A DNA stretch of 24,000 bases from an uncultured Erysipelotrichaceae bacterium (GTDB lineage: Bacteria > Bacillota_I > Bacilli_A > Erysipelotrichales > Erysipelotrichaceae). The stretch is taken from positions 346,595 to 370,594 of the forward strand of contig CAZGLV010000001.1 in NCBI GenBank assembly GCA_964526155.1, in the 5' to 3' direction. The notes below the pieces were generated by a model. The model ran no database searches and was not told where the DNA came from. It saw only the letters and a program-made list of their open reading frames with translations. The position numbers were made by a program, and so were the translations under genes. Shown in pieces: positions 926 through 23,137 of this stretch (positions are counted from its first letter, which is position 1; each line of letters begins with the position of its first letter).

Positions 926-929
926 TTCC

Positions 930-1842: not shown

Positions 1843-1853
1843 TGGAGTATAAT
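1843..1853 (+). promoter_or_regulatory. Putative -10 region 'TGGAGTATAAT' for the glg operon
   Basis: A consensus TATAAT sits at 1848-1853, about 29 nt upstream of the glgC ATG. No convincing -35 lies at 16-18 nt (the TTGAAC at 1828 is only 14 nt away). The same 11-mer recurs upstream of lemA. Confidence 0.35.
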
Positions 1854-1881
1854 AAAAACAGAAAAGCAAAGGGGAAATAAT

Positions 1882-3012
1882 ATGCGCCAACATCAGATGG
1901 TGGCCATGATCCTAGCCGGCGGGCGCGGGTCACGGTTGCTTGAGCTTACCAATAAAGTTGCCAAGCCCGCGGTTTATTTCGGAGGGAAGTACCGTATCGT
2001 CGATTTTCCGTTAAGCAATTGTGCCAACTCGGGGATCGACATCGTCGGTGTGTTGACACAATATGAATCGGTTTTATTGAACTCGTATGTCGCCCAAGAT
2101 TCCAGATGGGGACTGGACGCCAAGGACTCGGGAATTTATGTATTGCCACCGCGCGAAAAGAGCGAAGGGTTCGGACTTTATCGCGGGACGGCGGATGCCA
2201 TTACGCAAAACATCGATTTCCTTGACCAATACGACCCGGAATATGTCTTGGTTCTTTCGGGGGACCATATTTATAAAATGGATTATGCGAAAATGCTGGC
2301 CTTCCATAAGGCACGGTTGGCCGATGTGACGATCGCCGTTCTGGAAGTTCCGTTAAAAGAGGCTTCACGTTTTGGGATCATGAATACCGACGAGACCGAT
2401 CGCGTTCTCGAATTCGAAGAAAAACCGAAACATCCGAAGAGCAACTTAGCGTCCATGGGCGTTTATATTTTCAACTGGAAGTATCTACGCAAAACGTTGG
2501 TGGATGATATGAAGAATGATGCTTCGCATCATGACTTCGGTAAAGACATCATCCCCGGCGGCTTGAAAGCCGACAAACGGATGTTCGCGTATCGCTTCAA
2601 AGGATATTGGAAGGACGTCGGGACGATCGACAGTCTTTGGGAAGCCAACATGGACTTGATTTATCGTGGCACCGAACTCGATTTGGCGGATCCAAGCTGG
2701 AAGATCTATAGTGAAGATCAGCACATGCCATCGCAATTTATCGGGAGAAACGGGACCGTCAAGAATGCCTATATCAACCAAGGTTGCGTCATTGACGGAC
2801 ATGTGGAGAATTCCGTACTCTTTACAGGGGTGGTTGTTGAAGAAGGCGCAAAGGTAATCGACGCGGTATTGATGCCGGGGGTCGTCGTTCGTCAGAACGC
2901 GGTCGTCCAACGCGTCATCGTCGCGGACGATGTCGTGATCGACGAGAATGTCAACGTAGGCAAAGCGGGTGACGGGGAGATCGAATTGATCCATCGTCAT
3001 GTCCATAATTAA
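1882..3012 (+). CDS. glgC: Glucose-1-phosphate adenylyltransferase, catalytic subunit
   Basis: The start was trimmed to ATG 1882, which has RBS 'AAAGGGGAA' 6-7 nt upstream; the ORF-track start at 1828 is a TTG with no RBS. Motifs '[45 protein letters not shown]', 'GTADAI' and '[10 protein letters not shown]', plus the C-terminal left-handed beta-helix repeats, identify the family. Confidence 0.95.
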
Positions 3013-3024
3013 GGGGGCGACACC

Positions 3025-4140
3025 ATGTGCAACGCATTAGGAATCATCAACTACGATGACGCATCCGCATATGTCGCGGGGCTACAGGATTTCCGTCCGA
3101 TGCCGTCGTTGTCGTTTCTAGGCCGTTATCGGCTGATTGACTTCGTCTTATCCAATATGACCAATTCGGGCATCAAACATGTCCAAGTCTATGTTAAATC
3201 CAAACCGCGTTCGGTCTTTGAACATTTGGGGACCGGCCGTCAGTACGGCATCAATTCTAAGCGTGGGAAGTTGCATCTTTTAAATGGGGAAGAACCGATT
3301 TATTCGGAAATCTACAACCATGACATCACCGCGTTCACGCAAAACATGCAATTCATCGAAGAAGCGAACTATCCATATGTCGTCATCGCACCGAGTTTTA
3401 TGGTCACCAAGATCGATTACAACGACGTGGTCAACGCCCATCTTGAATCGGGAGCCGACATCACGGTCGTCTACAAGACGATCGACAACGCGAAAGAAGC
3501 GTTTATCGGGATCAATACGTTAACCTTGGATCGTGATAAACGGATTCTGAAATTCGAAAAAAATCAAGGGAAATACAAAAATCGCCATGTATCGTTGCGG
3601 ACCTATGTCATGCGCAAGAGTCTGTTCATCGACTTGATCCGTTTGGCACAGAAAACCAGTTCGATGTATTCGCTCTCCGATATCATCGCTGACAACATCA
3701 ACACCTTAAACATCATCGGATATAGCCACCGTGGCTATGTCGCTTGCATCAACAATATCGATCAATATTTCAAAGCGAATATGGAGCTGATTTGTCGGGA
3801 GAAGGCTGCGGAGCTTTTCGATCCGAAATGGCCGTTCAACACACGTACCAACGATTCTTGCCCGACACAATACTCGCCGTTAGCGGATGTTAAGTTTTCG
3901 ACCATCGCCAACGGATGCTTCATCGAAGGGGAGATCCACAACTCCGTCTTGGGACGTGGCGTCGTGGTCAAACCCGGTGCGGTCATCGAAAACAGTATCA
4001 TCCTACCCGGTGCTTTCATCGGTGAAAACGCACGCTTGAACTACTGTATCGTCGACAAGCATGCGAAAATCATGCATATGAAAGAATTGATCGGGACTCC
4101 CGAACAGTTGATCTACGTCAAACGTCGGGACACCCTGTGA
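3025..4140 (+). CDS. glgD: Glucose-1-phosphate adenylyltransferase, regulatory GlgD subunit
   Basis: RBS 'AAGGGGG' lies 7 nt upstream. 'LSFLGRYRLIDFVLSNMTNSGI' is a GlgC paralogue sequence lacking the GGxGxRL catalytic loop. The position between glgC and glgA is as in Bacillus-type glg operons. Confidence 0.9.
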   Translation: MCNALGIINYDDASAYVAGLQDFRPMPSLSFLGRYRLIDFVLSNMTNSGIKHVQVYVKSKPRSVFEHLGTGRQYGINSKRGKLHLLNGEEPIYSEIYNHDITAFTQNMQFIEEANYPYVVIAPSFMVTKIDYNDVVNAHLESGADITVVYKTIDNAKEAFIGINTLTLDRDKRILKFEKNQGKYKNRHVSLRTYVMRKSLFIDLIRLAQKTSSMYSLSDIIADNINTLNIIGYSHRGYVACINNIDQYFKANMELICREKAAELFDPKWPFNTRTNDSCPTQYSPLADVKFSTIANGCFIEGEIHNSVLGRGVVVKPGAVIENSIILPGAFIGENARLNYCIVDKHAKIMHMKELIGTPEQLIYVKRRDTL

Positions 4141-4147
4141 GGATCCT

Positions 4148-5584
4148 ATGAAAAAGATTCTGTTTGTGGCGGCGGAAGGATTGCCTTTCGTCAAAACCGG
4201 AGGTTTGGCGGATGTGGTGGGGAGCCTTCCCCAACAACTCGCCGAACTGGACTTCGAAGTTTCGGTCATTTTGCCTCTTTACCTGAAAACCGCCCGTACC
4301 CAACACCATACGTTGACGAAAGTCGCGACGTACCCCGTCAAGGTGGGTGTGTTGGATACGGTGGCAACCTTATATACCAAAAAGATCGGTGAAGTCACCT
4401 ATTATTTAGTTGAACATGCCGGGTATTTCGAACGTGACGGATACTATGGGTATCCGGATGACGGGGAGCGTTTCGCGTTCTTCCAACATGCCGTTCTGCG
4501 TGCGATCGAAGAGAAACATATCGAAACCGATGTGCTCCATTGTCATGACTGGCATACCGGATTCATCGCGTTACTTGCGCGTACTCTCTATTTACACCGT
4601 ATTCCGCAAGCATTGACCCTCTATACCATTCATAACTTGGCGTTCCAAGGGAACTTCCCCTTCGGAATCCTCAGCTCACTCTTCGGTCTATCCGATTCGA
4701 TGTATCATGACGGAACCTTGCGTTTCCATGAAGGGATGATTTCCTTCATGAAAGCCGGGATCTTGTTCTCGGATGTCGTCACGACCGTTTCCGATACCTA
4801 CGCTATGGAAATCCTGACGCCGGATTTCGGCGAACACATGGAAGATGTCCTACGCATGCGTAAACGCGATCTTTACGGGATCGTCAACGGAATCGACGTG
4901 CAAGCGTGGAATCCTGAAACGGATACCGCTTTGGCCAAGACGTACGATCTTCGAGGTGTCGAAAAGGGCAAGGCCGCCAATAAAAAAGCGATCCAAGCCG
5001 AACTCGGATTACGTCAAGATCCCGATGTGTTGCTTGTGGCGATGGTCAGCCGCCTCACCCCTCAGAAGGGTGTGCAATTGTTGATGGACACCATGCATGA
5101 AATCATGGGTTGGGATATGCAACTGGTCATTCTTGGTACCGGGGACAATTGGACGGAAAACGAACTTCGTCAAATCGAATACCGTTATCCGCATCGCGCC
5201 GTATTCTATTGCGGATACCATGAAGAGTTGGCGCATCGCATTTATGCCGGGGCGGATCTGTTATTGATGCCGTCGGCCTTCGAACCGTGCGGAATCTCGC
5301 AATTGATCGCCATGCGATACGGAACCTTGCCGTTGGTTCGCGAAACGGGCGGACTGAAAGATACGGTCGAACCCTACAACGAATTCACCTCGAAGGGTAC
5401 CGGATTCACATTCGGTCACTTCAATCGGGAAGATTTCAAACACATTCTCAAGTATGCCTTGGATACGTACTATCGTAATCCTGAAAACTGGAAGAAGTTG
5501 GTGAAGCAAGCCATGCGTAAAGACGTCAGCTGGAACAAGTCGGCACGTGAATACGCGAAACTGATCGAACGAAAAAGCCGTTAA
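4148..5584 (+). CDS. glgA: Glycogen (starch) synthase, ADP-glucose type
   Basis: The N-terminus 'MKKILFVAAEGLPFVKTGGLADVVGSLP' carries the KTGGL motif. 'HCHDWHTG', 'PSAFEPCGISQLIAMRYGTLPLVRETGGLKDTV' and the RBS 'GAGGA' support the call. Confidence 0.96.
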   Translation: MKKILFVAAEGLPFVKTGGLADVVGSLPQQLAELDFEVSVILPLYLKTARTQHHTLTKVATYPVKVGVLDTVATLYTKKIGEVTYYLVEHAGYFERDGYYGYPDDGERFAFFQHAVLRAIEEKHIETDVLHCHDWHTGFIALLARTLYLHRIPQALTLYTIHNLAFQGNFPFGILSSLFGLSDSMYHDGTLRFHEGMISFMKAGILFSDVVTTVSDTYAMEILTPDFGEHMEDVLRMRKRDLYGIVNGIDVQAWNPETDTALAKTYDLRGVEKGKAANKKAIQAELGLRQDPDVLLVAMVSRLTPQKGVQLLMDTMHEIMGWDMQLVILGTGDNWTENELRQIEYRYPHRAVFYCGYHEELAHRIYAGADLLLMPSAFEPCGISQLIAMRYGTLPLVRETGGLKDTVEPYNEFTSKGTGFTFGHFNREDFKHILKYALDTYYRNPENWKKLVKQAMRKDVSWNKSAREYAKLIERKSR

Positions 5585-5610
5585 AGAGCGTAGCGATACG
5601 CTCTTTTCTC
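5585..5610 (+). terminator. Rho-independent terminator after glgA
   Basis: Perfect 8-bp stem 'agagcgta' / 'tacgctct' with loop 'gcga', followed by 'tttctc'. It lies immediately after the glgA stop codon. Confidence 0.7.
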
Positions 5611-5666
5611 TGGTGACAATTGTAATGAAGATAATGTGAAACCATTAACAAAACCATACAAAAGCA

Positions 5667-5695
5667 TTGTTTCAATAAGTCGAAAATGCTATAAT
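5667..5695 (+). promoter_or_regulatory. Sigma-A type promoter of pgk-tpiA-eno (TTGTTT-17-TATAAT with extended TG)
   Basis: -35 'ttgttt' is at 5667-5672, followed by a 17-nt spacer and the extended -10 'TGcTATAAT' at 5687-5695. The element sits 28 nt upstream of the pgk ATG and its AAGGAGG RBS. Confidence 0.55.
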
Positions 5696-5722
5696 CTGAA
5701 TGACTACAAGGAGGATGTAGAT

Positions 5723-6919
5723 ATGGCAAAACTGACAGTACGCGACCTTTCGGTAAAAGGCAAACGCGTCATCGTTCGTGTCGATTTCAATGTTCCGATC
5801 AAAGAAGGCAAAATCAAAGACGACAATCGTATCGTCCAAGCCTTGCCGACCATCAACTATCTGGTTGAACAGGGAGCACGGATCATTCTCATGTCGCACT
5901 TGGGTAAAGTGGATCACAAGGATCCCGAACAAACTGCGGCTGACAAAGCCAAAAACAACATGGCGCCGGTCGCCGCCCGTTTAGGCGAATTGGTTAAGAC
6001 CAAAGTATCGTTTGTCCCCGAAACCAAAGGCGCGGCGCTGGAAGCGGCGGTTGCGGAATTGAAAGACGGGGAAATCGTCGTTGTTCAGAATACGCGTTAT
6101 GAAAAAGGCGAAAGCAAGAACGATCCGGAACTCAGCAAATACTGGGCTTCGTTAGCGGATCTGTTTGTGACGGATGCCTTCGGTTCGGTTCACAGAGCCC
6201 ATTCTTCGACCGTCGGGATCGCGGAGATCCTGCCTTCGGCCTTGGGATTCTTAGTCGAAAAAGAAGTCGATATGCTTGGCAAAGCCGTGTATGAGCCGGT
6301 TCGTCCGTTCGTGGCGATTTTAGGCGGTGCGAAAGTATCCGACAAAATCGCAGTCATCGAAAACCTTCTGACCATCGCCGACAAAGTCTTGATCGGCGGC
6401 GGGATGGCCTATACCTTCCTCAAAGCGGAAGGCAAGGAAATCGGGAAGTCGCTTGTCGAAGAAGATCGTATCGAAATGGCGAAGGATTTCTTGGCACGTT
6501 CACACGGAAAACTTATTTTACCGGTAGACCACGTCGCCGCTAGTGCGTTTGCGGAAGATGCGGATACCAAAATCGTCGACAACGACCATATCCCAACCGA
6601 TTACATGGGCTTGGATATCGGACCGGAATCGATCGCTCTTTTCAAGAAAGAACTCTTAGGCGCAAAAACCGTGGTCTGGAACGGACCGATGGGCGTCTTC
6701 GAAATGAAGCCGTTCGCCAAGGGAACCCTTGAGATCTGCACCGCGATTTCCGAGTTACCGGGCGCGATGACAGTCATCGGCGGCGGGGATTCGGCCGCGG
6801 CCGCGATCCAACTAGGATTCAAAGATAAATTCTCCCACATTTCAACCGGCGGCGGCGCCTCGCTTGAATTCATGGAAGGCAAAGAACTGCCTGGAATCGC
6901 CGTCATCAAGGAGAAATAG
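5723..6919 (+). CDS. pgk: Phosphoglycerate kinase
   Basis: The start was trimmed to ATG 5723, which has RBS 'AAGGAGGA' upstream. Motifs '[12 protein letters not shown]', 'DDNRI', 'ILMSHLGKV', '[11 protein letters not shown]' and '[11 protein letters not shown]...GGGDSAAA...[10 protein letters not shown]' identify the enzyme. Confidence 0.97.
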
Positions 6920-8985: not shown

Positions 8986-9021
8986 AAAGACGCTCCCTCA
9001 CAATGAAGGAGCGTCTTTTTT
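8986..9021 (+). terminator. Rho-independent terminator after eno
   Basis: An 11-bp stem 'aaagacgctcc' (8986-8996) pairs with 'ggagcgtcttt' (9008-9018), followed by a T-run to 9021. Confidence 0.8.
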
Positions 9022-9095
9022 ATGTTTAGATTTCAATAACCTTTTAGTCGCTTATGCCAATAAAATCGCATGCACGTTCAACAGCTTGTTGTTTT

Positions 9096-9124
9096 TTGAT
9101 TGCGTATCTGATAAAATGTATAAG
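9096..9124 (+). promoter_or_regulatory. Putative promoter of secG(-rnr-smpB): TTGATT-17-TATAAG with upstream TG
   Basis: -35 'ttgatt' is at 9096-9101, followed by a 17-nt spacer and 'TGtATAAG' with the -10 at 9119-9124. It lies 22 nt before the secG ATG. Confidence 0.45.
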
Positions 9125-9145
9125 CAAACTGAAAGGAGGATTCCG

Positions 9146-9367
9146 ATGCTTGATATCGTACTGATGGTGGTCGCCGTCCTACTGATTCTATTATCACTTC
9201 TACAGAGCGGCAAGTCCGACGGCATAAGCAGCGCTTTCTCCGGAAGCGGCGGGTTGAACCTGTTCGCCAACGTGAAAGAACGGGGTCCGGAAAAGACGAT
9301 TTCCCGGTTGACCTTGGTGCTGGGCATTTCGTTCTTTGTCCTAGTGATTTTAGTAAGAATCGTATAA
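9146..9367 (+). CDS. secG: Preprotein translocase subunit SecG
   Basis: The start was trimmed to ATG 9146 (RBS 'AAAGGAGGA'), because the ORF-track start at 8933 lies inside eno and its terminator. The 73-aa product has two TM segments flanking 'QSGKSDGISSAFSGSGG', which is SecG-typical. Confidence 0.85.
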   Translation: MLDIVLMVVAVLLILLSLLQSGKSDGISSAFSGSGGLNLFANVKERGPEKTISRLTLVLGISFFVLVILVRIV

Positions 9368-9417
9368 AAACGGCCGCTCAGGCCTTTTTTATTATAAAAT
9401 GAAGAGGGAGGATACTT

Positions 9418-11610
9418 ATGGACCTCAAACAACGAATATTGGATCGATTCGAACAAAACGGACAGACACTCTATCTGCTCGAACAATGGATCACAATGCT
9501 GGATCTCAAGGAAACAAGCGATATCGAACGCTTTTTTCAGGCGATCCGCGAGTTGGAAGAAGACGGTGAAATCACCAGCACACGTCAAAACAAAATCATA
9601 CGCACCAGCGACGCCGGATGGAAAACAGGTGTCATCAGTATCAATGCGAAAGGATTCGGTTTCGTGGATTTGGAGGAAGGATCCATCTACATCCATTCAT
9701 CCAATCTGAAAGATGCGATGCATCATGACACGGTCTTGGTGAAACCCAAGACATACAATGACGGAAGCAGCGAAGGCATCGTCGTCAAAGTACTCCAACG
9801 GGCGGTACCGCAAGTGGTCGTGGAGGCGGTACGTGACGCGTCTGGAATCAACTTCATCATCAACGATCCTCGTATCCGTCAAGGCGTCAAGTTTTTCGAT
9901 AGCGATCTTAGCCATATCACCGAAGGTGCGATCTTGGTCGCTCAGATCGTCGAGTATGGCGATCCCTTGATCGTAAAACTACTGAAAACACTGGGCTATA
10001 AGAATGAACCTGGCATGGATGTCTTGACCGTATTGGCCGAGTACAACGTCGAACCGGACTTTCCGAAAGAAGTCATGGACCAAGTCGCCAAGATTCCCAT
10101 GGAAGTGCAGGCGAAAGAGCTTGAGAAGCGCGTCGATTTTACCGATCGCGTGGTTGTGACGATCGACGGGGAAGATGCGAAAGACTTAGATGACGCGATC
10201 AGTTTAGCCAGAGTCGGCGACAAGTATAGCTTGCAAGTCCACATCGCGGATGTTAGCCACTATGTGACCGCATACTCGCCTTTAGACAAAGAAGCCGAAC
10301 ACCGAACGACATCCGTCTATGTTGTCGACCGTGTCGTCCCGATGTTACCTCATGCCTTATCAAATGGCATTTGTTCGTTGCATCCCGATGTTATACGGTT
10401 AACGCTTACCTGCGACATGTTAGTCGCCAAAGACGGTAGTGTCGAGTCTTATGAGATCGTACCTTCCTACATCCGATCGAAACATCGGATGACCTATACA
10501 AACGTCAATAAGATTCTAAAAGGTGACATGGAAGTCACCGAAAGATATAAGGAAGTCAAAGATCTGTTCTTCTTGATGAAGGAAGCCGCGGACCTAATTC
10601 GAAGTCGCCGTGAAGGCTTGGGTTCGATCAACTTCGAGACGATCGAATCGAAATTCAAAGTCGATGAAAAAGGAAAAGTACTGGCGATCGGGCCTCGCTT
10701 TCAAGATGAAGCCGAGTTGATCATCGAAGACTTCATGGTCTTGGCCAACGAAACCGTCGCCCGACATATGAAATGGTTAGATATCCCGGCGCTTTATCGT
10801 GTGCATGAGATTCCGGAAAAAGCGAAAATGCAGGAGTTCTCGAAAGTTCTCAATCCCTTTGGGGAACGACTTCGCGGCGATCTCAGTAACATCCAACCGA
10901 TCGTACTTCAACGTCTGTTGACGAAGTTTGAGAACAAGCCGGAGTTCCATGTCATTTCGACGGTTTTATTGAGAAGCATGCAGAAAGCGAAATACGACCC
11001 TCAATGCATCGGACACTTCGGATTAGCCCTTAAGGAATACTTACACTTCACCTCGCCGATACGACGTTATCCGGACTTGATCGTGCATCGTATGTTGCGA
11101 AAGTACCATTTCAACTTACCGGATGAGAACGCACGGATCGAAGATGAAAAATTGATGCAAACCTATGCGCTTGAGACCTCGGCCGGTGAACGTAATGCCG
11201 TCGAAGCCGAACGCGAAGTCGAGAACATGAAGAAAGCCGAGTTCATGATGGATCATATCGGAGAAACCCACATGGGAATCATCAGCGGTGTGACGCGATT
11301 CGGATTCTTCGTAGCGTTGGAGAATACCGTCGAAGGATTGGTCCATATCCAAACGTTAACGGATGACTACTATGAATTCGATGCCCGCGGTTATAGTCTA
11401 CGCGGTACCCGGACGCATCGTATGTTTGTGTTAGGCCAAAAGGTGAAAATCAAAGTCACCGGGGCAAGCAAAGAAAAGAAGACGGTGGATTTCCAATTGG
11501 CCGAAGAAGTGAAACACAAATCGACGGCACCGGTAGGGACAATGCATAAATCCACGCCAACCGCACACAAAGGGGGATCGGGACGTGGCCGTAAAAACCG
11601 TATCCGTTAA
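9418..11610 (+). CDS. rnr: Ribonuclease R (3'-5' exoribonuclease, RNB family)
   Basis: The RNB catalytic region is present: 'TIDGEDAKDLDDAIS', 'VHIADVSHYV', 'TSVYVVDRVVPMLP' and 'HFGLALKEYLHFTSPIRRYPDLIVHR'. There is a C-terminal S1 domain ('GIISGVTRFGFFVALENTVEGLVHI') and a basic tail. RBS is GGGAGGA. Confidence 0.95.
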   Translation: MDLKQRILDRFEQNGQTLYLLEQWITMLDLKETSDIERFFQAIRELEEDGEITSTRQNKIIRTSDAGWKTGVISINAKGFGFVDLEEGSIYIHSSNLKDAMHHDTVLVKPKTYNDGSSEGIVVKVLQRAVPQVVVEAVRDASGINFIINDPRIRQGVKFFDSDLSHITEGAILVAQIVEYGDPLIVKLLKTLGYKNEPGMDVLTVLAEYNVEPDFPKEVMDQVAKIPMEVQAKELEKRVDFTDRVVVTIDGEDAKDLDDAISLARVGDKYSLQVHIADVSHYVTAYSPLDKEAEHRTTSVYVVDRVVPMLPHALSNGICSLHPDVIRLTLTCDMLVAKDGSVESYEIVPSYIRSKHRMTYTNVNKILKGDMEVTERYKEVKDLFFLMKEAADLIRSRREGLGSINFETIESKFKVDEKGKVLAIGPRFQDEAELIIEDFMVLANETVARHMKWLDIPALYRVHEIPEKAKMQEFSKVLNPFGERLRGDLSNIQPIVLQRLLTKFENKPEFHVISTVLLRSMQKAKYDPQCIGHFGLALKEYLHFTSPIRRYPDLIVHRMLRKYHFNLPDENARIEDEKLMQTYALETSAGERNAVEAEREVENMKKAEFMMDHIGETHMGIISGVTRFGFFVALENTVEGLVHIQTLTDDYYEFDARGYSLRGTRTHRMFVLGQKVKIKVTGASKEKKTVDFQLAEEVKHKSTAPVGTMHKSTPTAHKGGSGRGRKNRIR

Positions 11611-15785: not shown

Positions 15786-16766
15786 ATGGCAAACATCATC
15801 GACGTAGCAAAAAAAGCGGGAGTCGGCATCGCGACCGTTTCCAGGGTCGTCAATAACTCCGGTTATGTGAAAAAGGAAACCCGCGAGAAAGTGGAAAGTG
15901 TCATTCGCGAGATCGGCTTTGTTTCCAATGAGATCGCCCGCAGCATGGCGCTTCAAAAGAACAACTTGGTCGCGTTTCTTTTACCCAACAGTACGCATTT
16001 GTTTTTCGGAGAACTGATCGACGCGGTCGAAAAAGAATTGTATCGCAACGGATACATGCTGATGTTGTGTAACTCCAGCGAACAAATCGAAAAAGAGATT
16101 ACGTATATCGAAATGCTGAAGCGGAGTCGCGTGGATGCGTTGATCTTGTTGACGAACAACGATATCGAACCTTACTTGGAGAAGCGATTCCCGATTGTTT
16201 CGTTTGACCGCAGATTCGAAGGAGTTCCCTTCGTTGCGAGCGACAATTATAAAGGCGGCGTCATGGCTGCGCAGTACTTATTGAAAAAAGGATGTCGACA
16301 CTTCATGTTTATCGGCGATGACGCGCCAGGTGAATATTCGGTTTTCAACTCGGAAGTCGCGAAACGTAGAATCGGGTTTATCGAAGAGTTGAAACATCAC
16401 GGCATCGATAACATCATCAACATCGAATATCCTCTAGGCGATTACAAATCGATTCCCGAATCGATTTACCAAACGGTAATCGATCATCCCGAAGTCGACG
16501 GCATCTTCACCATCGACGATATCATCGCAGCCGAAGTCGTGCGACGAATGGAAAAAGTCGGTCGCAATGTTCCGAACGATGTCAAAATCATCGGGTTTGA
16601 CGGCGGACGCGAAACTTCGAATCTAGGGAAAGCGATCACTTCGATTTCACAGAGTCCGGAACGGATCGCGCAGGCGCTGGTCGAAAACGTATTACTGTTG
16701 ATTAACGGTGAAAAGGGCATAGATAAGATTGTTCCGATTGAGTTCATTCAAGGGGAAACGGCATAA
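15786..16766 (+). CDS. LacI family transcriptional regulator
   Basis: The N-terminal HTH 'MANIIDVAKKAGVGIATVSRVVNNSGYVKKETREKVESVIREIGFVSNEIARSM' is followed by a periplasmic-binding-protein-like sugar-binding fold ('VDALILLTNN', 'IIGFDG'). Confidence 0.9.
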   Translation: MANIIDVAKKAGVGIATVSRVVNNSGYVKKETREKVESVIREIGFVSNEIARSMALQKNNLVAFLLPNSTHLFFGELIDAVEKELYRNGYMLMLCNSSEQIEKEITYIEMLKRSRVDALILLTNNDIEPYLEKRFPIVSFDRRFEGVPFVASDNYKGGVMAAQYLLKKGCRHFMFIGDDAPGEYSVFNSEVAKRRIGFIEELKHHGIDNIINIEYPLGDYKSIPESIYQTVIDHPEVDGIFTIDDIIAAEVVRRMEKVGRNVPNDVKIIGFDGGRETSNLGKAITSISQSPERIAQALVENVLLLINGEKGIDKIVPIEFIQGETA

Positions 16767-16778
16767 CGCCGTTTTTTT
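16756..16778 (+). terminator. Rho-independent terminator after the LacI-family gene
   Basis: Stem 'aaacggc' / 'gccgttt' with loop 'ataac', overlapping the stop codon and followed by a T-run to 16778. Confidence 0.7.
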
Positions 16779-17108
16779 CACGGTGAAAGAAAAGTCAACG
16801 GCGAATCCAATCTTGGTATGCTTACGGTCCAAGGTTATTTTATGTTCTAAATGAAAACAATCACATCCTGTCCATATCGATCGAGCATCGGAAACACTAT
16901 GGTTATCATGCGCAGAGATTTCAATGACTATCGGAAAGGATCATACAGAAAAATTGTATTGTTCAGTTCAAACCCCGATCGAAAGGATAAGCTAACATTC
17001 CTCATTCACAAAGAGCGTTCCCCATTGAACTCCCTTTCTGTTAGTTTGTCAAACCATCGGGGTTAACTTCACATGGAATGTTCTTATTGTGTTTGTCAGA
17101 ATCAGAGT

Positions 17109-17141
17109 CATTGAAACATCGCATTTCAATTGGAGTATACT
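17109..17141 (+). promoter_or_regulatory. Putative promoter with overlapping inverted repeat for the 4-TM protein gene
   Basis: -35 'ttgaaa' is at 17111-17116 and 'TGGAGTATACT' at 17131-17141, giving a 19-nt spacer that is longer than optimal. A 7-bp inverted repeat 'attgaaa'(17110-17116) / 'tttcaat'(17124-17130) overlaps the -35. Confidence 0.35.
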
Positions 17142-17207
17142 TAAGTTAGGAGATATCAACCGAATTAAAACCGCTTTTAGAGGCAAACAACTCAAAAGGA
17201 GAGACCA

Positions 17208-17642
17208 ATGCGCACAATGAAAACCACCTCGCTATTGAAACCATTGATTCTAGTGACTTTGAGTGGACTTCTGTTGATCGCGTTCGCATTTGTACTATAT
17301 GTCTCGCTCTTTTTGCTTCAAGAATCCATTGGCAACGAAGCAAATAGATATGGATTTGTTTCCACATATCGTGCAAGTTACGGCATTATTTGGAGCGTTG
17401 TCGGTCTTATCGCTTATAAACTAAGACTACCGGATTGGTTGAAAGCCGGGTTTCTAACCGCTTCCATCGGAACCTTGTTGGTAACCTTCTCGGTCAACCA
17501 CTATCAATCCTTGTCTCAAATCATATTATTTGCGGGATCCGTAACTGCCATTGTTCTTTTCTTCTTAATCAAAACCAAACGGAAGTGGTATCACTTTTAC
17601 GCACTATCCCTCGCACTCCTTGCGGTACTTGCGTATATGTGA
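17208..17642 (+). CDS. Hypothetical small membrane protein (about 4 TM, 144 aa)
   Basis: RBS 'AAAGGAGAG' lies 5-6 nt upstream of the ATG. Four hydrophobic stretches are visible (for example 'LILVTLSGLLLIAFAFVLYVSLFLL' and 'IILFAGSVTAIVLFFLI'). No family was recognised. Confidence 0.6.
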   Translation: MRTMKTTSLLKPLILVTLSGLLLIAFAFVLYVSLFLLQESIGNEANRYGFVSTYRASYGIIWSVVGLIAYKLRLPDWLKAGFLTASIGTLLVTFSVNHYQSLSQIILFAGSVTAIVLFFLIKTKRKWYHFYALSLALLAVLAYM

Positions 17643-17713
17643 TGAATCAACAGCATTATCTGTGTATAAATCTTCCCATCTCGATATCCCTCACTTGAAG
17701 TATTTCGATTTCA

Positions 17714-17742
17714 TTGACAGTCCATCGCCGATATTCTATACT
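17714..17742 (+). promoter_or_regulatory. ssrA promoter: TTGACA-17-TATACT
   Basis: A consensus -35 'ttgaca' at 17714-17719 is followed by a 17-nt spacer and the -10 'tatact' at 17737-17742. The mature tmRNA 5' end (17757) is 15 nt downstream, consistent with a short processed leader. Confidence 0.75.
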
Positions 17743-17756
17743 ATGGACGCACACAT

Positions 17757-18104
17757 GGGGGTGTCATGGTTTCGACAGGTTGCTGTTGGATTCAGGCTGC
17801 AGTGGTGTGGCGACCTAATCGCCAAAAAACAAATAACTAACAACAATTACGCTTTCGCTGCTTAATTAGTCTAAACTAGACTTCAGCGTGTCTCCCCGGG
17901 TTCGTCCTTGGGCTTGGGCTAGACATCAGAAACGAGGAATACGGGATCCAGTCGTCCGTACGAAGATCCCCTACAATCCATTCGGGCACATCGAACCAAG
18001 TTCGTCCGTTCGCTAAGGTTCGATTATCAGAAGCGGAATAAACTGTAGATGCTTGAATGTGAAGCACAATTTGGACAGGGGTTCGACTCCCCTCACCTCC
18101 ACCA
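17757..18104 (+). ncRNA. ssrA: tmRNA (SsrA), standard one-piece form
   Basis: The 5' 'GGGGGUGUCAUGGUUUCGACAGG' and 3' 'GGACAGGGGUUCGACUCCCCUCACCUCCACCA' form a tRNA-Ala-like acceptor stem with a G3:U wobble and a T-arm (AGGGG-UUCGACU-CCCCU). The internal tag frame is 'UAAUC GCC AAA AAA CAA AUA ACU AAC AAC AAU UAC GCU UUC GCU GCU UAA' (17821-17865), giving AKKQITNNNYAFAA. The smpB gene is in the same window. Confidence 0.97.
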
Positions 18105-18119
18105 TAAATTTGGTGCACG

Positions 18120-18147
18120 AACCGATTCCCCATGATCGGTTTTTTTG
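18120..18147 (+). terminator. Rho-independent terminator of ssrA
   Basis: Stem 'aaccgat' (18120-18126) pairs with 'atcggtt' (18135-18141) around an 8-nt loop, followed by a T-run to 18146. Confidence 0.8.
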
Positions 18148-18206
18148 TTGCATAAAATATATATAATCAACAACGTTCAAAACCGAAATATATACATTTC
18201 AGAAAA

Positions 18207-18806
18207 CTATTTCTTTTTGTAAATCACATAAATACCAAATGTGATCAACAAACACGTTACAGCATAACTACCAAACATAAACAGGTATTGAGTGGCTTCA
18301 TTCTTGATAGAGATATATTGAAAGATAAACATTTCCATCCGTCGAAACAAAAGCATATAGGGCACAAATATGACTAACCATAAGTTGATGCCATAGAACA
18401 CAGAACGAATGAGTTTTTGTTCGGGTTTCGGGTGGTGGTTTATCAACAATTCAAATGTGACGACCCCAACAATCTGAACGATAAAACCAAGATATGCATA
18501 TTCCCAAACCGCGATCATGAAGACGAGTCCGATCAAAACGACGGCTGTCGAAATGATAATCAAGGATCGGGAACTGAATTGTCTTTTTACGGAGGGTTGA
18601 TCACTCTCAATCGTGTCTTTAAGCAGGTAATCCGTGGATACTTTAAAGTACTCGCTAATCTGGACGATTTTATCAGCTTCGGGTGTTGAAATCCCAAGCT
18701 CCCATTTTGATAATGCTTGTCGGGAAACGTTCAGTTGATCTGCCAAGTTTTCCTGCGTTAGGTTGTGTTCTTTTCGTAATGACTGAATCTTGTTCGCAAT
18801 GTTCAT
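18207..18806 (-). CDS. Membrane-anchored XRE-family (HTH_3) transcriptional regulator with 4 C-terminal TM segments
   Basis: The start was trimmed to the ATG at 18806, which has RBS 'AAGGAG' 7 nt upstream. The HTH is 'IQSLRKEHNLTQENLADQLNVSRQALSKWELGISTPEADKIVQISEYFKVSTDYLL'. Four hydrophobic helices follow (for example 'LIIISTAVVLIGLVFMIAVW' and 'YLFMFGSYAVTCLLITFGIYVIY'). Confidence 0.85.
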   Translation of the reverse strand: MNIANKIQSLRKEHNLTQENLADQLNVSRQALSKWELGISTPEADKIVQISEYFKVSTDYLLKDTIESDQPSVKRQFSSRSLIIISTAVVLIGLVFMIAVWEYAYLGFIVQIVGVVTFELLINHHPKPEQKLIRSVFYGINLWLVIFVPYMLLFRRMEMFIFQYISIKNEATQYLFMFGSYAVTCLLITFGIYVIYKKK

Positions 18807-18848
18807 ATACAGTCTCCTTAGTTTATGCATTAATCTTAGCTAACATCC

Positions 18849-18877
18849 ACTATACCATCTACCATGCATGGATTGAA
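18849..18877 (-). promoter_or_regulatory. Promoter of the XRE-TM gene (TTCAAT-17-TGgTATAGT) with a 10-bp palindrome in the spacer
   Basis: The minus strand reads 'gcTTCAATccatgcatggtagaTGgTATAGTgg'. The perfect palindrome 'ccatgcatgg' (18862-18871) lies between -35 and -10, which is a plausible autoregulatory operator. Confidence 0.5.
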
Positions 18878-19219
18878 AGCGCGCAACGGTTGGTTGCGAA
18901 TCAAAAGTCTGCAGATAATTGGGCAACTTGTGATGTTTCGTTTTAGTTGGCACATTGTACTGAAACCGCTGGTTAATGAAATGATTGAGTTGATGAAGTT
19001 CAAACATATATAATCTCAATAGAGCTAAAACCAACCCATCTCTCGTTATACTTCCACTTGCCTCCCAAACAAAATTAAAGAGACGGTCGCGGAAATAACG
19101 TTTACTCGCTCAGATTTCGGTGTAGATTCGTATGATGCCCATCGTTTAGAGCGTAAGTATAGAAAACAAAAAGCGAAGATGCTAAGATGCATCCATATAC
19201 TCACAAGGGGAGAAAAATC

Positions 19220-19999
19220 ATGGAAAACGAACTACGAAAACTAAAAAGATTTAATTTAATCATGGGATTTTTTCATTTCATTCAAGGGATCGCGATGCTA
19301 TTCTTGGCGACTACCGTCATTCAGAAAATCGCGGAATTCCAACCGGTCATCACGCAAAACTACCAACGATTTGATGAGGTAACACGCACGTTAGTTTTAG
19401 ATAAAAAGGAATTGTTTACGTTACCATTTGGGATTTTGGTTGCCAGTTTCCTACTCATCTCGGCGGTCGCTCACGGGTTGATTTACCTCAACAGTAAGAA
19501 ATACTTCGCGGATCTCAAACGTGGCGTCAATCAATTCCGTTGGTTCGAGTATGCGCTAAGTTCCTCGATCATGATCGTTTTGATCGCAACGTTATTCGGT
19601 ATTTATGACATCGCTTCGCTAACATTGATTTTCTTAGTCAATGCGGCGATGAACTTGTTTGGATTGGATATGGAACTCTTGAATGCGGGAAGCGAAAAGA
19701 AAAAAGTCAATTGGGGTCCGTTTATCTGGGGCTCCGTCGCCGGAATCGCACCGTGGATCGCAATCGTCCTCTATATGACCGGAACCGGAAACTTAGAAAA
19801 CGTTCCTTGGTTTGTCTGGGCGATCGTCGGAACTTACTTCGTCGCATTTAACACCTTCCCGATCAACATGATTCTTCAATACAAGAGAATCGGGAAATGG
19901 AAAAACTATCTCTATGGCGAACGTACGTACATCGTACTAAGTTTGGCCGCGAAATCGATCTTGGCATGGTTGGTACTCTTCGGGGCAATGCAACCGTAA
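19220..19999 (+). CDS. Heliorhodopsin (retinal-binding 7-TM protein, HeR family)
   Basis: The start was trimmed to ATG 19220 (RBS 'GGGGAG' 7 nt upstream), giving 259 aa. 'FRWFEYALSSSIMIVLIA' and 'GERTYIVLSLAAKSILAW' closely match the recalled 48C12 segments 'FRWVEYSLSSSVMIVLIA' and 'GERAYIVLSLVAKSALAW'. The Schiff-base Lys is K245 (AAA 19952-19954) and the counter-ion Glu is E110 (GAG 19547-19549). Conserved His residues sit at 'GFFHF' (H19) and 'SAVAHG' (H85). 'GIAPWIAIVLYM' and 'FLVNAAMNLFG' also match. Confidence 0.9.
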   Translation: MENELRKLKRFNLIMGFFHFIQGIAMLFLATTVIQKIAEFQPVITQNYQRFDEVTRTLVLDKKELFTLPFGILVASFLLISAVAHGLIYLNSKKYFADLKRGVNQFRWFEYALSSSIMIVLIATLFGIYDIASLTLIFLVNAAMNLFGLDMELLNAGSEKKKVNWGPFIWGSVAGIAPWIAIVLYMTGTGNLENVPWFVWAIVGTYFVAFNTFPINMILQYKRIGKWKNYLYGERTYIVLSLAAKSILAWLVLFGAMQP

Positions 20000-20030
20000 A
20001 CAAGACTGAAACTCTTATAATCATTAACTG

Positions 20031-20068
20031 AAACCGCTGTTTGATTTATCTCAAACAACGGTTTTTTT
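20031..20068 (+). terminator. Strong rho-independent terminator after the heliorhodopsin gene
   Basis: A 14-position stem 'aaaccgctgtttga' (20031-20044) pairs with 'tcaaacaacggttt' (20051-20064) with one C/A mismatch and loop 'tttatc', followed by a T-run to 20068. Confidence 0.85.
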
Positions 20069-20136
20069 GCTTATGAAAATACCCTCGGTCGTCTTCAAAT
20101 AGAGGGAACTTTTACCTATAGTATCCTTACTTTTAT

Positions 20137-20185
20137 ATATAGTTATCATAACCATATTGACTAATACCGATAACTATATTATTCT
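20137..20185 (+). promoter_or_regulatory. Putative promoter (TTGACT-17-TATTCT) of DUF1836-degV bracketed by an 11-bp perfect inverted repeat
   Basis: The inverted-repeat arms are 'atatagttatc' (20137-20147) and 'gataactatat' (20169-20179), with a 21-bp spacer that contains the -35 'ttgact' (20157-20162). The -10 'tattct' (20180-20185) ends 7 nt before ATG 20192. Confidence 0.4.
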
Positions 20186-20191
20186 TGATTC

Positions 20192-20710
20192 ATGGAAACA
20201 ACAAACCACAAAAAAACGAATCTTCTTCCGCGGTGGGAAGAACTTCCGGATCTTGATCTCTATATGGATCAAGTCCTAAGTTTGACAGATCGATATTTGG
20301 CGCCCTTGTCGGTAAAGCCGATCACGGCGTCGATGATCAACAATTACGTGAAACTGAAACTGATCCCCCCCACCAAAGGAAAACGCTACAGTCGAATACA
20401 TGTGGCCTTTATCTTCGCGATCGCGGTGCTAAAGGATGTATTTGAGATCGCGCAGATCCGTGACGGGATTTTAATCGAGACCAATGTACTCGGCTTAAAA
20501 AACGCCTATAACTTATTTACGATCGAGATTGAAAGCGCAATCCGACTTGTGGAAGCACAAAGCGGACAAAAAGAACCCATCGCGCTTATCGAAGGTGAAA
20601 TCAGCGACGCCAACAAAATCATGAAGTTCGCCGCGTTGAGTTTTGCGACACAGCGCCATGCGAAAGCGTTGATTCAATTCAACAAACAAGGAGAAACCAA
20701 GCATGAATGA
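20192..20710 (+). CDS. DUF1836 domain protein (putative DNA-binding partner of DegV)
   Basis: 'LPRWEELPDLDLYMDQVLSLTDRYL...ITASMINNYVKLKLIPPTKGKRYSRIHVAFIFAIAVLKDVF' matches the DUF1836 pattern. The gene overlaps the downstream degV start by 8 nt, the usual arrangement. No SD sequence lies upstream of the ATG. Confidence 0.78.
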   Translation: METTNHKKTNLLPRWEELPDLDLYMDQVLSLTDRYLAPLSVKPITASMINNYVKLKLIPPTKGKRYSRIHVAFIFAIAVLKDVFEIAQIRDGILIETNVLGLKNAYNLFTIEIESAIRLVEAQSGQKEPIALIEGEISDANKIMKFAALSFATQRHAKALIQFNKQGETKHE

Positions 20711-21554
20711 AAAAATAGCGATTCTTACGGATTCCGGGAGTGATGTGCCTGCGGATTGGGCAAAAGAATATGGAATCTTCGTACTACCGCTTCAAGTCAT
20801 CTATGAGAATCGTACGTATTCGGACGGGGTCGACATCGATGCCCAATCCGTTTACGATCGACTGCCTATCGAAGTTCCATCAACTTCACTTCCCAAAGGT
20901 GAAGTCGTCGACGAAATCCTTAACCGGATCAAAAGCGAAGGATATACGCACATCTTGGCGGTCGTCCTTTCTTCCGGGCTCTCCGGCACATGTAATTTCA
21001 TCCGACTGATGGCACAAGAAAGTACGATTCCGTTTCATGTGGTCGATACCAAAAACATCGGGATCGGAAGCGGACTCAGTGTCATGAAGGCGGCGCGTCT
21101 TGTTAGGGAAGGTATATCCTTTAGCGAACTGATCGAAAAAGTCGAAGCAAGCACGAAGAAAACCAAAGTCTTCTTCGTACTTTCGACCCTTGAATATCTG
21201 AAGAAAGGCGGACGCATCGGAAAAGTCACCGCCTTATTGGGGACAACGTTTGACCTCAAACCGATCATCACATGCAACGAAGACGGAATCTACACCACCG
21301 TCACGAAAACACGCGGAAGAAAAGCATCTTTACGCCGGCTTCAAGAGTTGGTCTATGATTTCGCTGATGGTGCTACCAATATCAGTATCGGATTCTCACA
21401 CGGAGATGCCTTTAGTGAAATCACCGCGCTCAAAGAAGATGTACTAAGCCATCTAACCAACGTGAAGCAAGTCTACTTCGGACAAGTTTCTCCGGCGCTC
21501 GGCGTCCATACCGGACCGGGGTTGATCGGAATCGGTATTTCAATCGACGATTAA
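20703..21554 (+). CDS. DegV family fatty-acid-binding protein (FakB-like)
   Basis: 'IAILTDSGSDVP', 'STSLPKGEVVDEI', 'ILAVVLSSGLSGT', 'LEYLKKGGRIGK' and 'GVHTGPGLIGIG' are canonical DegV motifs. RBS is AAGGAGA. Confidence 0.93.
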   Translation: MNEKIAILTDSGSDVPADWAKEYGIFVLPLQVIYENRTYSDGVDIDAQSVYDRLPIEVPSTSLPKGEVVDEILNRIKSEGYTHILAVVLSSGLSGTCNFIRLMAQESTIPFHVVDTKNIGIGSGLSVMKAARLVREGISFSELIEKVEASTKKTKVFFVLSTLEYLKKGGRIGKVTALLGTTFDLKPIITCNEDGIYTTVTKTRGRKASLRRLQELVYDFADGATNISIGFSHGDAFSEITALKEDVLSHLTNVKQVYFGQVSPALGVHTGPGLIGIGISIDD

Positions 21555-21556
21555 TA

Positions 21557-21596
21557 AAAACGCCGCAGACAATCAAGATTGTCCACGGCGTTTTTG
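21557..21596. terminator. Bidirectional terminator between degV (+) and the CxxC membrane protein gene (-)
   Basis: The outer stem 'aaaacgccg' (21557-21565) pairs with 'cggcgtttt' (21586-21594). The inner stem is 'gacaat' / 'attgtc' with a 4-nt loop. An A-run lies on the left and a T-run on the right. Confidence 0.7.
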
Positions 21597-21602
21597 TTTG
21601 GG

Positions 21603-22085
21603 TTATTGTGTCGAATATCGAACTTTACATTTACCTTTTTCGATTTCCCACAAGGTGATTCCGATTCCTAACAGAATCAGAACCAATGAGATAAACTTAT
21701 AGGGTAGGCCGGCCAAGGGAAGGGCAATCACAGAAAACGCAATGCCGAGATTGGCGAAGAATGCGATGACACAAGGCGTACAACCATAGGTCAAAATTCC
21801 GAAAAGTACGGAGATAAATCCTAGATTGGAACCGACGCTCTCTTTGCCTTTGAGGTTGGCCATGATCGTACTGAGATTCATCAATAACGCGGAAAGGAAA
21901 GACATCACAATGTTTAGCGAAATGTTAACGACGACCAAGACCGTTCCATAGGTCTTTGCCATTTGCGCATAACTCAGGTTGAATCCATCAACCATCGTGT
22001 AAATCAACAGAAAGAAAGCAAAGAAACCCAATCCCTGAAGTAGATATTTACGGTTCTGAAGTTGTTTTAAGGCGAGTTGGATCAT
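21603..22085 (-). CDS. Hypothetical polytopic membrane protein with intramembrane CxxC ('YGCTPCVIAFF')
   Basis: RBS 'GGAGG' lies just upstream of the ATG. Four to five hydrophobic helices are visible and the pair Cys-Thr-Pro-Cys sits inside the third. The C-terminus 'KGKCKVR' carries another Cys. No family was recognised. Confidence 0.6.
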   Translation of the reverse strand: MIQLALKQLQNRKYLLQGLGFFAFFLLIYTMVDGFNLSYAQMAKTYGTVLVVVNISLNIVMSFLSALLMNLSTIMANLKGKESVGSNLGFISVLFGILTYGCTPCVIAFFANLGIAFSVIALPLAGLPYKFISLVLILLGIGITLWEIEKGKCKVRYSTQ

Positions 22086-22327
22086 AAAACCTCCGTAATC
22101 ATTCCGCTATAATATACCACACTCAAGAAATCGATGGGTTTTCGATGACCAAACAATCTCGGTGATCGTACTAACACGAAAACAGAAAGGTAAGCTTATT
22201 GTAAGTAAATCATAATCAAAAGTCATCTATTAGGAAAGCAAGGTTGAACTCATAAAAATCCTGATGAATGACTATGATACAATAATGATAATCGCAGAAG
22301 AGGCGAAATCGAATCGGGGGAACTCGA

Positions 22328-23137
22328 ATGAATCAAACCACGCCGCAAAAACTAGACCGACTCATAGAGAAACTCTGTGAACTTGACGAAGTATCAGCCA
22401 TCGGAATCAGCGGAAAAGCGCCGCAAACATGGACCCCGGAAGAAGGGGACATCGATATTTTCATTTATTGCGATCCCATTCCGAAGGAAGAACGCCGGCA
22501 GATAATAACCAAAGAACTCGCGGATGTAATTCAAAACACGAGAATCGGTGTTTTTGAAGGTGGACATTGGGGGAAGGGTGACTTTGCGACTCTCGATGGT
22601 ATCGAAACGTGGATGATGTACTTCACGATCGAGGAAACCCAACGGAACATAGAAGATATTCTTTCCGGAAAATATCCGGATAAGTTGGATAACGAATACT
22701 ATCCGATCGCCCGATGTGCCATGTTTCGTGATCTTAGAATCCAATATGACAAGAATGGATTCCTGACGGGTCTGAAGAATCGGCTCGCGACCTATCCCGA
22801 TAAGCTTGCGCGAACAATGATCCGTTATCACTTGAAGGCACTTGAAGACACCGAAGATCTAATGCGCGCTGTGCAACGCAAAGATGTGTTGTTTTATCAC
22901 TTTGCCATGGAAATCGCACTCGATCACTTCCTTCAAGCGCTCTTTGCGATCAATCGTGTTTATTTCCCAAGTCGTAAACGTTCGATCGAGTGGATCCGGC
23001 GATTTCCACTGAAACCTCAAGATTGCGAAATACGATTAGCGAAGGTGATTCAACTTGGCGGGGATCCGGACTTTATGGAGGAATCTCACCGATCCTTTGC
23101 GGAACTTGTTGTTGAACTCTTCGGATTCGACGGGTAA
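22328..23137 (+). CDS. Pol-beta superfamily nucleotidyltransferase with C-terminal helical domain (DUF4037-like)
   Basis: 'VSAIGISGKAPQTWTPEEGDIDIFIYCD' carries the G-S ... D-x-D minimal nucleotidyltransferase signature. An alpha-helical C-terminal half of about 150 aa follows. RBS is 'GGGGGA'. Confidence 0.7.
   Translation: MNQTTPQKLDRLIEKLCELDEVSAIGISGKAPQTWTPEEGDIDIFIYCDPIPKEERRQIITKELADVIQNTRIGVFEGGHWGKGDFATLDGIETWMMYFTIEETQRNIEDILSGKYPDKLDNEYYPIARCAMFRDLRIQYDKNGFLTGLKNRLATYPDKLARTMIRYHLKALEDTEDLMRAVQRKDVLFYHFAMEIALDHFLQALFAINRVYFPSRKRSIEWIRRFPLKPQDCEIRLAKVIQLGGDPDFMEESHRSFAELVVELFGFDG

Follow-up and report, generated by a model that had tools for sequence, protein, structure and literature searches.

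A stand-alone heliorhodopsin gene in the variable region beside ssrA of an uncultured Erysipelotrichaceae bacterium

A stretch of 24,000 nucleotides from an uncultured Erysipelotrichaceae bacterium (GenBank assembly GCA_964526155.1, contig CAZGLV010000001.1, positions 346,595 to 370,594 of the forward strand), referred to here as the window, carries a heliorhodopsin (HeR) gene downstream of ssrA, the gene for transfer-messenger RNA (tmRNA). The HeR coding sequence occupies window positions 19220 to 19999 on the plus strand and consists of 259 codons and a stop codon. An in-frame ATG is present further upstream at 19187; the start at 19220 is favoured over it because 259 amino acids is the commonest length among the homologues. 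A ribosome-binding site, AAGGGGAG, was read in the sequence at 19205 to 19212 on the plus strand, seven nucleotides before the ATG. It is kept in the closest related locus, L009, which lies on the complete chromosome OW818635.1 of a metagenome-assembled genome (MAG) and represents the same region at approximately 88-90% nucleotide identity to the window; its HeR protein is 98% identical to the window HeR. Downstream of the gene, an intrinsic terminator at 20030 to 20072 (plus strand) consists of a 14-bp interrupted stem, a 6-nt loop and a T-run. The hairpin, at about 20030 to 20065 and followed by the T-run, has a predicted RNA folding energy of -17.4 kcal/mol with a z-score of -4.83, and none of 200 shuffled sequences was equally stable. 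A simple pattern scan missed this hairpin, probably because of an unpaired stem position in the predicted fold. A first-pass annotation, made from the sequence alone, had given the same reading frame and had proposed a ribosome-binding site and a strong terminator (placed at 20031-20068) for this gene, and all three were found in this study.

The promoter is less certain. A candidate at 19160 to 19188 on the plus strand, which is our own reading, consists of TAGAAA, a 17-nt spacer and the extended -10 element TGcTAAGAT; in L009 one spacer base differs while both hexamers and the TG are identical. The best consensus match in the promoter scan, at 18985-19014 (TTGAGT, 18-nt spacer, TATAAT), was rejected because its -10 element is not conserved in L009. 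No relevant structured leader or riboswitch was found upstream of HeR in an Rfam search at a permissive threshold, and the fold of 19020-19225 was unremarkable (z = +0.4). The HeR gene stands alone as a monocistronic unit with its own ribosome-binding site and terminator, since the terminator closes it off and, in L009, a 0.75-kb insert with another open reading frame (ORF) lies between HeR and the next gene.

Profile searches identified the product as a heliorhodopsin. The match to Pfam PF18761 (Heliorhodopsin) spans the entire model (1-242 of 242) with an E-value of 1.6e-92 and 309.7 bits against a threshold of 26.7. The NCBIfam equivalog NF038020 ('heliorhodopsin HeR') is also covered from end to end (1-244 of 244) with 287.7 bits against a cutoff of 100, so the standard NCBI pipeline would name this protein automatically. 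When all PDB sequences were searched with phmmer, every match was a heliorhodopsin, including TaHeR (6is6, E-value 1.8e-55, 45% identity by BLASTP), Chromera Cv06 (9vfc, 1.6e-49) and 48C12, the founding HeR (6su3, 8e-47, 42% identity by BLASTP with 16 gap positions). A total of 4,555 database proteins were found as homologues at an E-value of 1e-10 or below, and a protein identical to the window HeR was found on ENA and Logan metagenome contigs, where the neighbouring genes are also the same.

Alignment to 48C12 and TaHeR placed all of the diagnostic residues. The predicted retinal Schiff-base lysine in transmembrane helix 7 (TM7) is K245 (codon AAA, 19952 to 19954, plus strand), which aligns with K241 of 48C12 and with the TaHeR lysine in the motif SLxAKSxLAW common to the alignment. 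The predicted counter-ion of the Schiff base in TM3 is E110 (codon GAG, 19547 to 19549, plus strand), which aligns with E107 of 48C12 and E108 of TaHeR. An independent fix on the counter-ion position comes from the PDB entry 7clj, described as the E108D mutant of TaHeR, since in the region aligned to the query it differs from 6is6 solely in the E110 column. The conserved histidine pair H23 and H80 of 48C12 corresponds to H19 and H85, and N101, R104, W105 and S237 correspond to N104, R107, W108 and S241, respectively. Differences from 48C12 were found at Q213 (M217, methionine as in TaHeR), E149 (N155) and A210 (P214). A recent preprint describes a lateral fenestration or 'carotenoid site' motif with aromatic residues at positions 162 and 206, small residues at 166 and 210, G169 and N207 (bioRxiv 10.1101/2025.11.27.691015); this motif is intact in the window HeR as F168/F210, S172/P214, G175 and N211. 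Among 40 close homologues, the mapped pocket and fenestration residues, with K245, E110, H19 and H85 among them, are invariant, except for S172 and N211, which are present in at least 90%.

An AlphaFold2 model of the window HeR built on the 40 homologues (mean pLDDT 84.5, pTM 0.81) contains seven long transmembrane helices and a beta-hairpin between TM1 and TM2 at residues 43-67 (strands 43-52 and 57-67). Comparison of the model with the PDB using Foldseek returned TaHeR 6is6 as the top match, with TM-scores of 0.88/0.91 and a root-mean-square deviation of 1.9 A, followed by 48C12 with TM-scores of 0.84-0.86, while type-1 rhodopsins scored well below these (approximately 0.5-0.64). TaHeR (also 7u55 and 7clj) is thus the best match among solved structures; it differs in its archaeal origin (Thermoplasmatales), and relative to it the window HeR is longer by seven residues in the TM1-TM2 segment and by three in the TM5-TM6 loop. 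The 48C12 protein (also 6uh3) has the same fold. Lysine and arginine residues are distributed unevenly across the predicted membrane, with 15 on the N-terminal side (N-terminal tail and loops 2, 4 and 6) against five on the other (loops 1, 3 and 5 and the C-terminus), and on this basis the N-terminus is predicted to be cytoplasmic and the C-terminus outside, which is the inverted topology that defines the family. The family assignment, the two catalytic-site codons, the histidine pair and the inverted topology had all been put forward in the first-pass annotation and agree with these results. The statement that long stretches are near-identical to 48C12 is overstated, as the overall identity is 42% and close similarity is confined to the TM3 and TM7 motifs.

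Comparison with L009 revealed five nonsynonymous and 45 synonymous differences in HeR, giving a dN/dS of 0.025. The values for the neighbouring genes were 0.029 for DegV, 0.06 for DUF1836 and 0.19 each for the XRE regulator and a 144-aa ORF. Across 40 relatives at 77-82% identity, 121 of the 259 HeR positions are invariant. Both lines of comparison clearly point to a functional HeR gene under strong purifying selection. The gene had also been described as lying in an AT-richer pocket, and this is the case: GC content is 0.38-0.43 over approximately 16800-20700 compared with 0.45-0.55 elsewhere in the window. Most of the effect comes from intergenic DNA, the XRE gene (GC 0.388) and the 144-aa ORF, and the HeR gene itself does not look unusual, as its GC (0.437) and GC3 (0.558) fall within the range of the other, housekeeping genes of the window.

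The order of genes in the window is folC, an ECF S component, glgCDA, pgk-tpi-eno, secG, rnr, smpB, DUF2207, LemA, a lactonase, LacI (15786-16766), the 144-aa ORF (no family match), ssrA, an XRE-type helix-turn-helix (HTH) protein on the minus strand, HeR, DUF1836, DegV (20703-21554, second gene after HeR), a 160-aa unknown, DUF4037 and a LytTR protein. The tmRNA gene was located at 17757 to 18104 on the plus strand by ARAGORN and by Rfam (RF00023, 129.8 bits). The ECF S subunit (930-1751) is the sole transporter component in the 24 kb. Genes for carotenoids or retinal (crt, blh) did not turn up in Pfam scans of all main non-overlapping window ORFs of at least 100 aa, in agreement with the first-pass annotation, and neither did genes for photolyase, glutamine synthetase or a multidrug-type ABC transporter. 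The best named relatives of the RNase R encoded in the window are from Erysipelotrichaceae MAGs (78%), followed by Holdemania and Anaerorhabdus (49%), which places the host among the uncultured Erysipelotrichaceae or Erysipelotrichales.

Comparison of the window with its next-closest lineages after L009, L096 and L097 (RNase R 78% and 63% identical to the window), revealed that the gene order from folC to LemA is kept and continues up to the tmRNA gene. Nucleotide homology with both lineages then ends at window position 18104/18105, which is the last base of the tmRNA. Their tmRNA genes lie at 17279-17625 (L096) and 17636-17983 (L097) by Rfam RF00023. ARAGORN reported neither; both match RF00023 over its full length at 122-130 bits and are 79-92% identical to the window tmRNA by blastn, and the ARAGORN miss is a false negative of the tool. 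Beyond the tmRNA, L096 (17626-22163) encodes a YD-repeat (RHS-like) protein, a 273-aa unknown and a Fic protein, and L097 (17984-22187) carries a run of small unannotated ORFs; none of HeR, the XRE gene, DUF1836 and DegV was found in either lineage within approximately 4.5 kb downstream of the tmRNA. L096 also lacks LacI and the 144-aa ORF upstream of ssrA. Against L009, the XRE-HeR pair forms a single 1.87-kb block of homology (18206-20068) with insertions or deletions at both ends, and the block stops at 20068, just past the HeR terminator. The extra DNA in L009 consists of a 1-kb ORF directly after ssrA and, after the HeR terminator, the 0.75-kb insert mentioned above, which carries a 152-aa membrane ORF. 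Judged from these comparisons, the 3' flank of ssrA is a variable region and, in this family, a hot spot of gene turnover, among strains as well as among lineages.

The upstream side of ssrA also differs between the window and L009. In L009 a 6.3-kb sugar-utilisation block (571-6888) lies between LacI and the 144-aa ORF, where the window has only approximately 240 bp (16831-17072). Genes in this block, assigned by eye, encode two ABC permeases, a beta-phosphoglucomutase-like protein, a large phosphorylase-like enzyme and a solute-binding protein, and without the block the window LacI is left as an orphan regulator.

A classical ssrA island or integrative element was considered and rejected for the HeR region: in the main non-overlapping ORFs of 100 aa or more the domain scans detected neither an integrase nor a recombinase, and a search of 16700-22400 gave no direct repeat of the tmRNA 3' end. 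For these two reasons the region is called a variable region and not a demonstrable integrative element. The sole tmRNA-derived repeat, which matches over 17 nt at 82% and lies within the DUF1836 ORF, looks like chance. The region resembles ssrA-associated genomic islands in that the HeR-containing DNA starts at the tmRNA 3' end and in that the content differs between lineages, and it differs from them in the lack of an integrase and of an att repeat and in the composition of HeR, which is not clearly foreign. A 19-nt direct repeat around HeR (18959-18977 and 20027-20045, 17 of 19 identical) was likewise rejected as a cassette border, as L009 lacks the exact 13-nt core. The downstream copy forms the 5' arm of the terminator, and the upstream copy has two further differences in L009; the repeat is probably chance or terminator-like sequence and could be the relic of a second terminator.

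Two side observations concern the same region. On the strand opposite the tmRNA, an 85-aa ORF crosses the gene in the window (17876-18133, minus strand) and in L009 (7695-7952, minus strand), and a gene of approximately 81 aa is called at the equivalent place in L096; the structured RNA has almost certainly given rise to an annotation artefact here. A search of metagenome contigs with DegV for an empty site gave seven matches. In one of them, the 2.3-kb contig L089, whose DegV is 97% identical to that of L009, positions 1-1137 are joined to sequence equivalent to window 20612-21810, so that DegV is joined to ORFs resembling the alaS C-terminus, ireB and ruvX (by eye) at a junction inside the 3' end of DUF1836. 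This contig may be a chimeric assembly or may be a real rearrangement that removed the ssrA-HeR stretch in a related strain.

The gene divergent from HeR, at 18207 to 18830 on the minus strand, encodes a protein with an XRE-type HTH domain (Pfam HTH_3, E-value 6e-16) and a hydrophobic, presumably membrane-spanning C-terminal half. A control region of 389 nt lies between the two genes. The L009 orthologue (8986-9609, minus strand) is interrupted by an in-frame stop at codon 16, after which the first ATG, GTG or TTG comes at approximately residue 89, and it is either a pseudogene or the product of a sequencing error in the MAG. At the other HeR loci, L009 aside, tblastn found a single match, confined to the HTH domain, in L027 (45% over 71 residues). 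The XRE protein is the only candidate for a local partner, and its membership in a HeR system is that of a candidate.

Relatives of the window HeR at 67-84% identity were found across Bacillota (Erysipelotrichaceae, Clostridia and Lactobacillales) and in MAGs of Izemoplasmatales and Acholeplasmataceae, almost always as single genes. A scan with one genome per species gave 162 confirmed HeR loci, of which the best 80 are 67-98% identical. Carriers among these best 80 of 162 include Erysipelotrichaceae, Izemoplasmatales and Acholeplasmataceae (the last two as MAGs), Proteiniclasticum, Fusibacter, Anaerobium, Enterococcus aquimarinus, Halolactibacillus, Pelagirhabdus, Peloplasma and others. Analysis of the neighbourhoods of 84 related HeR loci, in which 541 neighbouring ORFs were clustered, revealed no conserved partner gene: every neighbour family is limited to 11 or fewer of the 84 loci, the clusters track host lineage and the neighbourhoods are unrelated between lineages. 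A tightly coupled neighbour on the same strand (gap below 60 nt) is present upstream in two of the 84 loci and downstream in seven. Given these unrelated neighbourhoods and the rarity of tight coupling, the stand-alone layout is the norm of the clade. In addition, none of the ten recurrent HeR neighbour classes reported earlier (PMC11109279) adjoins the window HeR.

Comparison of HeR with a housekeeping protein of the same genomes revealed a further feature of the clade. In OW818668.1 (L008/L020) and HGW-Firmicutes-10 (L012), HeR is 77-81% identical to that of the window, while RNase R is 48-49% identical. Such a difference is consistent with horizontal spread among Bacillota, with unusually tight constraint on HeR, or with both, and the distribution of the clade suggests horizontal spread of HeR as a single gene among Bacillota. 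One type of neighbour, fatty-acid-kinase components, recurs loosely: the window has a DegV/FakB-like gene at position +2 of HeR, and at about -3 a Dak2-FakA_M-DegV fusion is encoded in approximately ten further loci (L018, L065, L070, L075, L077, L082 and L085-L088), mostly of Izemoplasmatales. Many Bacillota genomes contain several copies of DegV genes. The recurrence represents two or three independent lineages and may be coincidence.

The closest characterised relative is TfHeR from Trichococcus flocculiformis, which is 74% identical to the window HeR over 257 aligned columns. Its sequence was identified through the published cloning primers, which encode the start MKEITTEK and the end MQP (PMC9769723). 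At neutral pH TfHeR absorbs at 542 nm; the pKa of its counter-ion is 4.3, it shows no ion pumping, and it has a slow photocycle with slow O decay (PMC9769723). It binds a class II CPD photolyase with a Kd of 21.7 uM and raises the repair activity approximately three-fold; the cytoplasmic-loop residues R162 and K227 are essential for binding and E97 adds affinity (PMC9769723). TfHeR and the window HeR belong to the same Bacillota clade and share the C-terminal sequence LFGAMQP, the Schiff-base lysine and the counter-ion glutamic acid. The two differ in host, as TfHeR comes from a member of the Carnobacteriaceae and the window HeR from an Erysipelotrichaceae-like host, and in context, as TfHeR is reported in an operon with the class II CPD photolyase while the window HeR is alone. 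They also differ at the binding residues: R162 is S158 in the window HeR, K227 is R223 with the charge kept, and the three-residue loop segment around E97 is deleted.

A DNA photolyase (Pfam PF00875) was found as the divergent -1 neighbour of HeR in six of the 84 loci (L052, L058, L060, L066, L070 and L078). The HeRs linked to photolyase, with TfHeR counted, have arginine or lysine at position 162 in six of seven cases, and the loop deletion occurs in none of the seven. The hosts of these loci are Acholeplasmataceae, Erysipelothrix, Peloplasma, Izemoplasmatales and a Staphylococcaceae MAG, and the arrangement recalls the published TfHeR-photolyase pair. A tocopherol-cyclase-like gene (PF14249) was also noted at HeR +1 in L052, L058 and L066, as well as in L033.

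Overall, we consider it probable that the window gene encodes a functional heliorhodopsin that would scavenge retinal and act, without pumping ions, as a light sensor on a partner whose gene lies elsewhere in the genome. The apoprotein would take up all-trans-retinal from the surroundings and would absorb green light at approximately 540-550 nm without ion pumping, as expected from the family and from TfHeR. Retinal would be bound at K245 as a protonated Schiff base with its charge balanced by E110. The photocycle would last seconds, and its long-lived photointermediate could let the basic cytoplasmic loops bind or modulate a partner protein; the loops proposed for this contact contain KK 93-94, KR 100-101, KKK 160-162, KR 222-223 and K226. 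As no partner is encoded beside HeR, the output most likely runs through a protein from another part of the genome. Two actinobacterial systems, AbHeR with glutamine synthetase and OcHeR with an ABC transporter (PMC9529153, PMC11109279), offer parallels in that a non-pumping HeR is proposed to modulate a partner in response to light; unlike the window HeR, they share an operon with the partner, and no glutamine synthetase or multidrug ABC gene adjoins the window HeR. The lack of crt and blh genes is expected and not puzzling, since a full retinal pathway was reported in one of 381 genomes that carry only HeR (bioRxiv 10.1101/2021.02.01.429150). Efficient capture of exogenous retinal by HeRs is attributed in the same preprint to Shihoya et al. 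2019.

Several points weigh against this interpretation. Chromophore binding, colour, photocycle and partner are all transferred to the window HeR by homology. Two of the three photolyase-binding residues of TfHeR are not conserved, and the main ORFs of the 24 kb include no photolyase, glutamine synthetase or multidrug-type ABC transporter. Many carriers of the clade come, according to isolate names, from anoxic and presumably dark habitats (digesters, groundwater and sediments), which fit poorly with a purely light-driven role.

Among the alternatives, the least improbable is that the window HeR is a photolyase helper like TfHeR, in which green light would boost a class II CPD photolyase docked on the loops and encoded elsewhere in the genome. 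The 74% identity to TfHeR (PMC9769723), the divergent photolyases of the clade and the conservative replacement of K227 speak for such a partner, which is possible; it is not favoured because of the serine at the essential position 162, the missing E97 segment, both at odds with the photolyase-linked HeRs, and the absence of a photolyase from the 24 kb, and we regard it as unlikely. A role in handling energy or ions, either as a two-chromophore light harvester with an exogenous xanthophyll antenna, which has been proposed for HeRs in general, or as a proton transporter like the viral V2HeR3, appears less likely still. The original studies of 48C12 and TaHeR reportedly found no ion pumping, which counts against this role. 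Intact carotenoid-site residues (motif from bioRxiv 10.1101/2025.11.27.691015) and a report that some viral HeRs transport protons (PMC12873467) would favour it, but the closely related TfHeR does not pump ions (PMC9769723), and the antenna proposal consists of docking and sequence motifs in a preprint and by itself defines no output.

Equally improbable in our view is a two-gene switch from light to transcription, in which HeR would signal within the membrane to the XRE-HTH/membrane protein as a tethered repressor. The two genes are adjacent and divergent around a joint control region and were inherited in one block in L009 with insertions or deletions flanking it. Against this, the L009 regulator has its early stop and no later start able to translate the HTH domain, while the L009 HeR is still under a far stronger constraint (0.025 against 0.19), the regulator is represented beside other HeRs only by the HTH-only match in L027, and variable regions very commonly carry XRE regulators as passengers. 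The remaining alternative, that HeR is itself a decaying or functionless passenger of an ssrA-linked island, would fit its place in a lineage-variable stretch whose neighbours are gained and lost between strains. It is effectively refuted by the selection signal, as judged from an intact, full-length ORF with all key residues, the low dN/dS, the 4,555 homologues and the invariance of nearly half of the positions (121 of 259).

The window HeR is a genuine, intact and routine member of a large family that already has a name, and not a new kind of protein. The first-pass annotation was right about the identity and overstated the significance, because the protein is 42% identical to 48C12, is named automatically by NF038020 and is 74% identical to a characterised protein, and also because the single-gene layout is the rule in the clade and the lack of a retinal pathway has already been published as normal. 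Taken alone, it is one further well-behaved member of a family of thousands and changes little. The more informative part of that annotation is the position beside ssrA, where synteny breaks exactly at the 3' end of the tmRNA. A modest interest attaches to this break, to the spread of the clade as single genes with extreme conservation in largely anaerobic Bacillota, and to the contrast with TfHeR.

As a working suggestion to which we give only a small chance, the HeR clade may move as a single-gene cassette and enter variable regions like the ssrA flank, in largely anaerobic hosts, often from dark habitats judging by their sample names, that would be unable to make retinal. The conserved function would then possibly not be the sensing of sunlight; HeR may instead signal that retinoid or carotenoid has arrived from outside, or that the cell is briefly exposed to light and oxygen at an oxic boundary, by way of a partner common to all hosts and hence never linked to the gene.

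For the study of heliorhodopsins, the window provides a single-gene HeR under strong selection, and a related lineage with a complete MAG chromosome (OW818635.1) is at hand. TfHeR expresses and purifies, and the window HeR, without the photolyase linkage and with two of the three binding residues changed, is a clean test case beside it; comparison of the two could reveal the loop residues that decide the choice of partner. The pattern of the clade, in which the genes stand alone, neighbours are not conserved and HeR identity far exceeds that of RNase R in the genome pairs compared, bears on the role of heliorhodopsins in organisms that do not make retinal.

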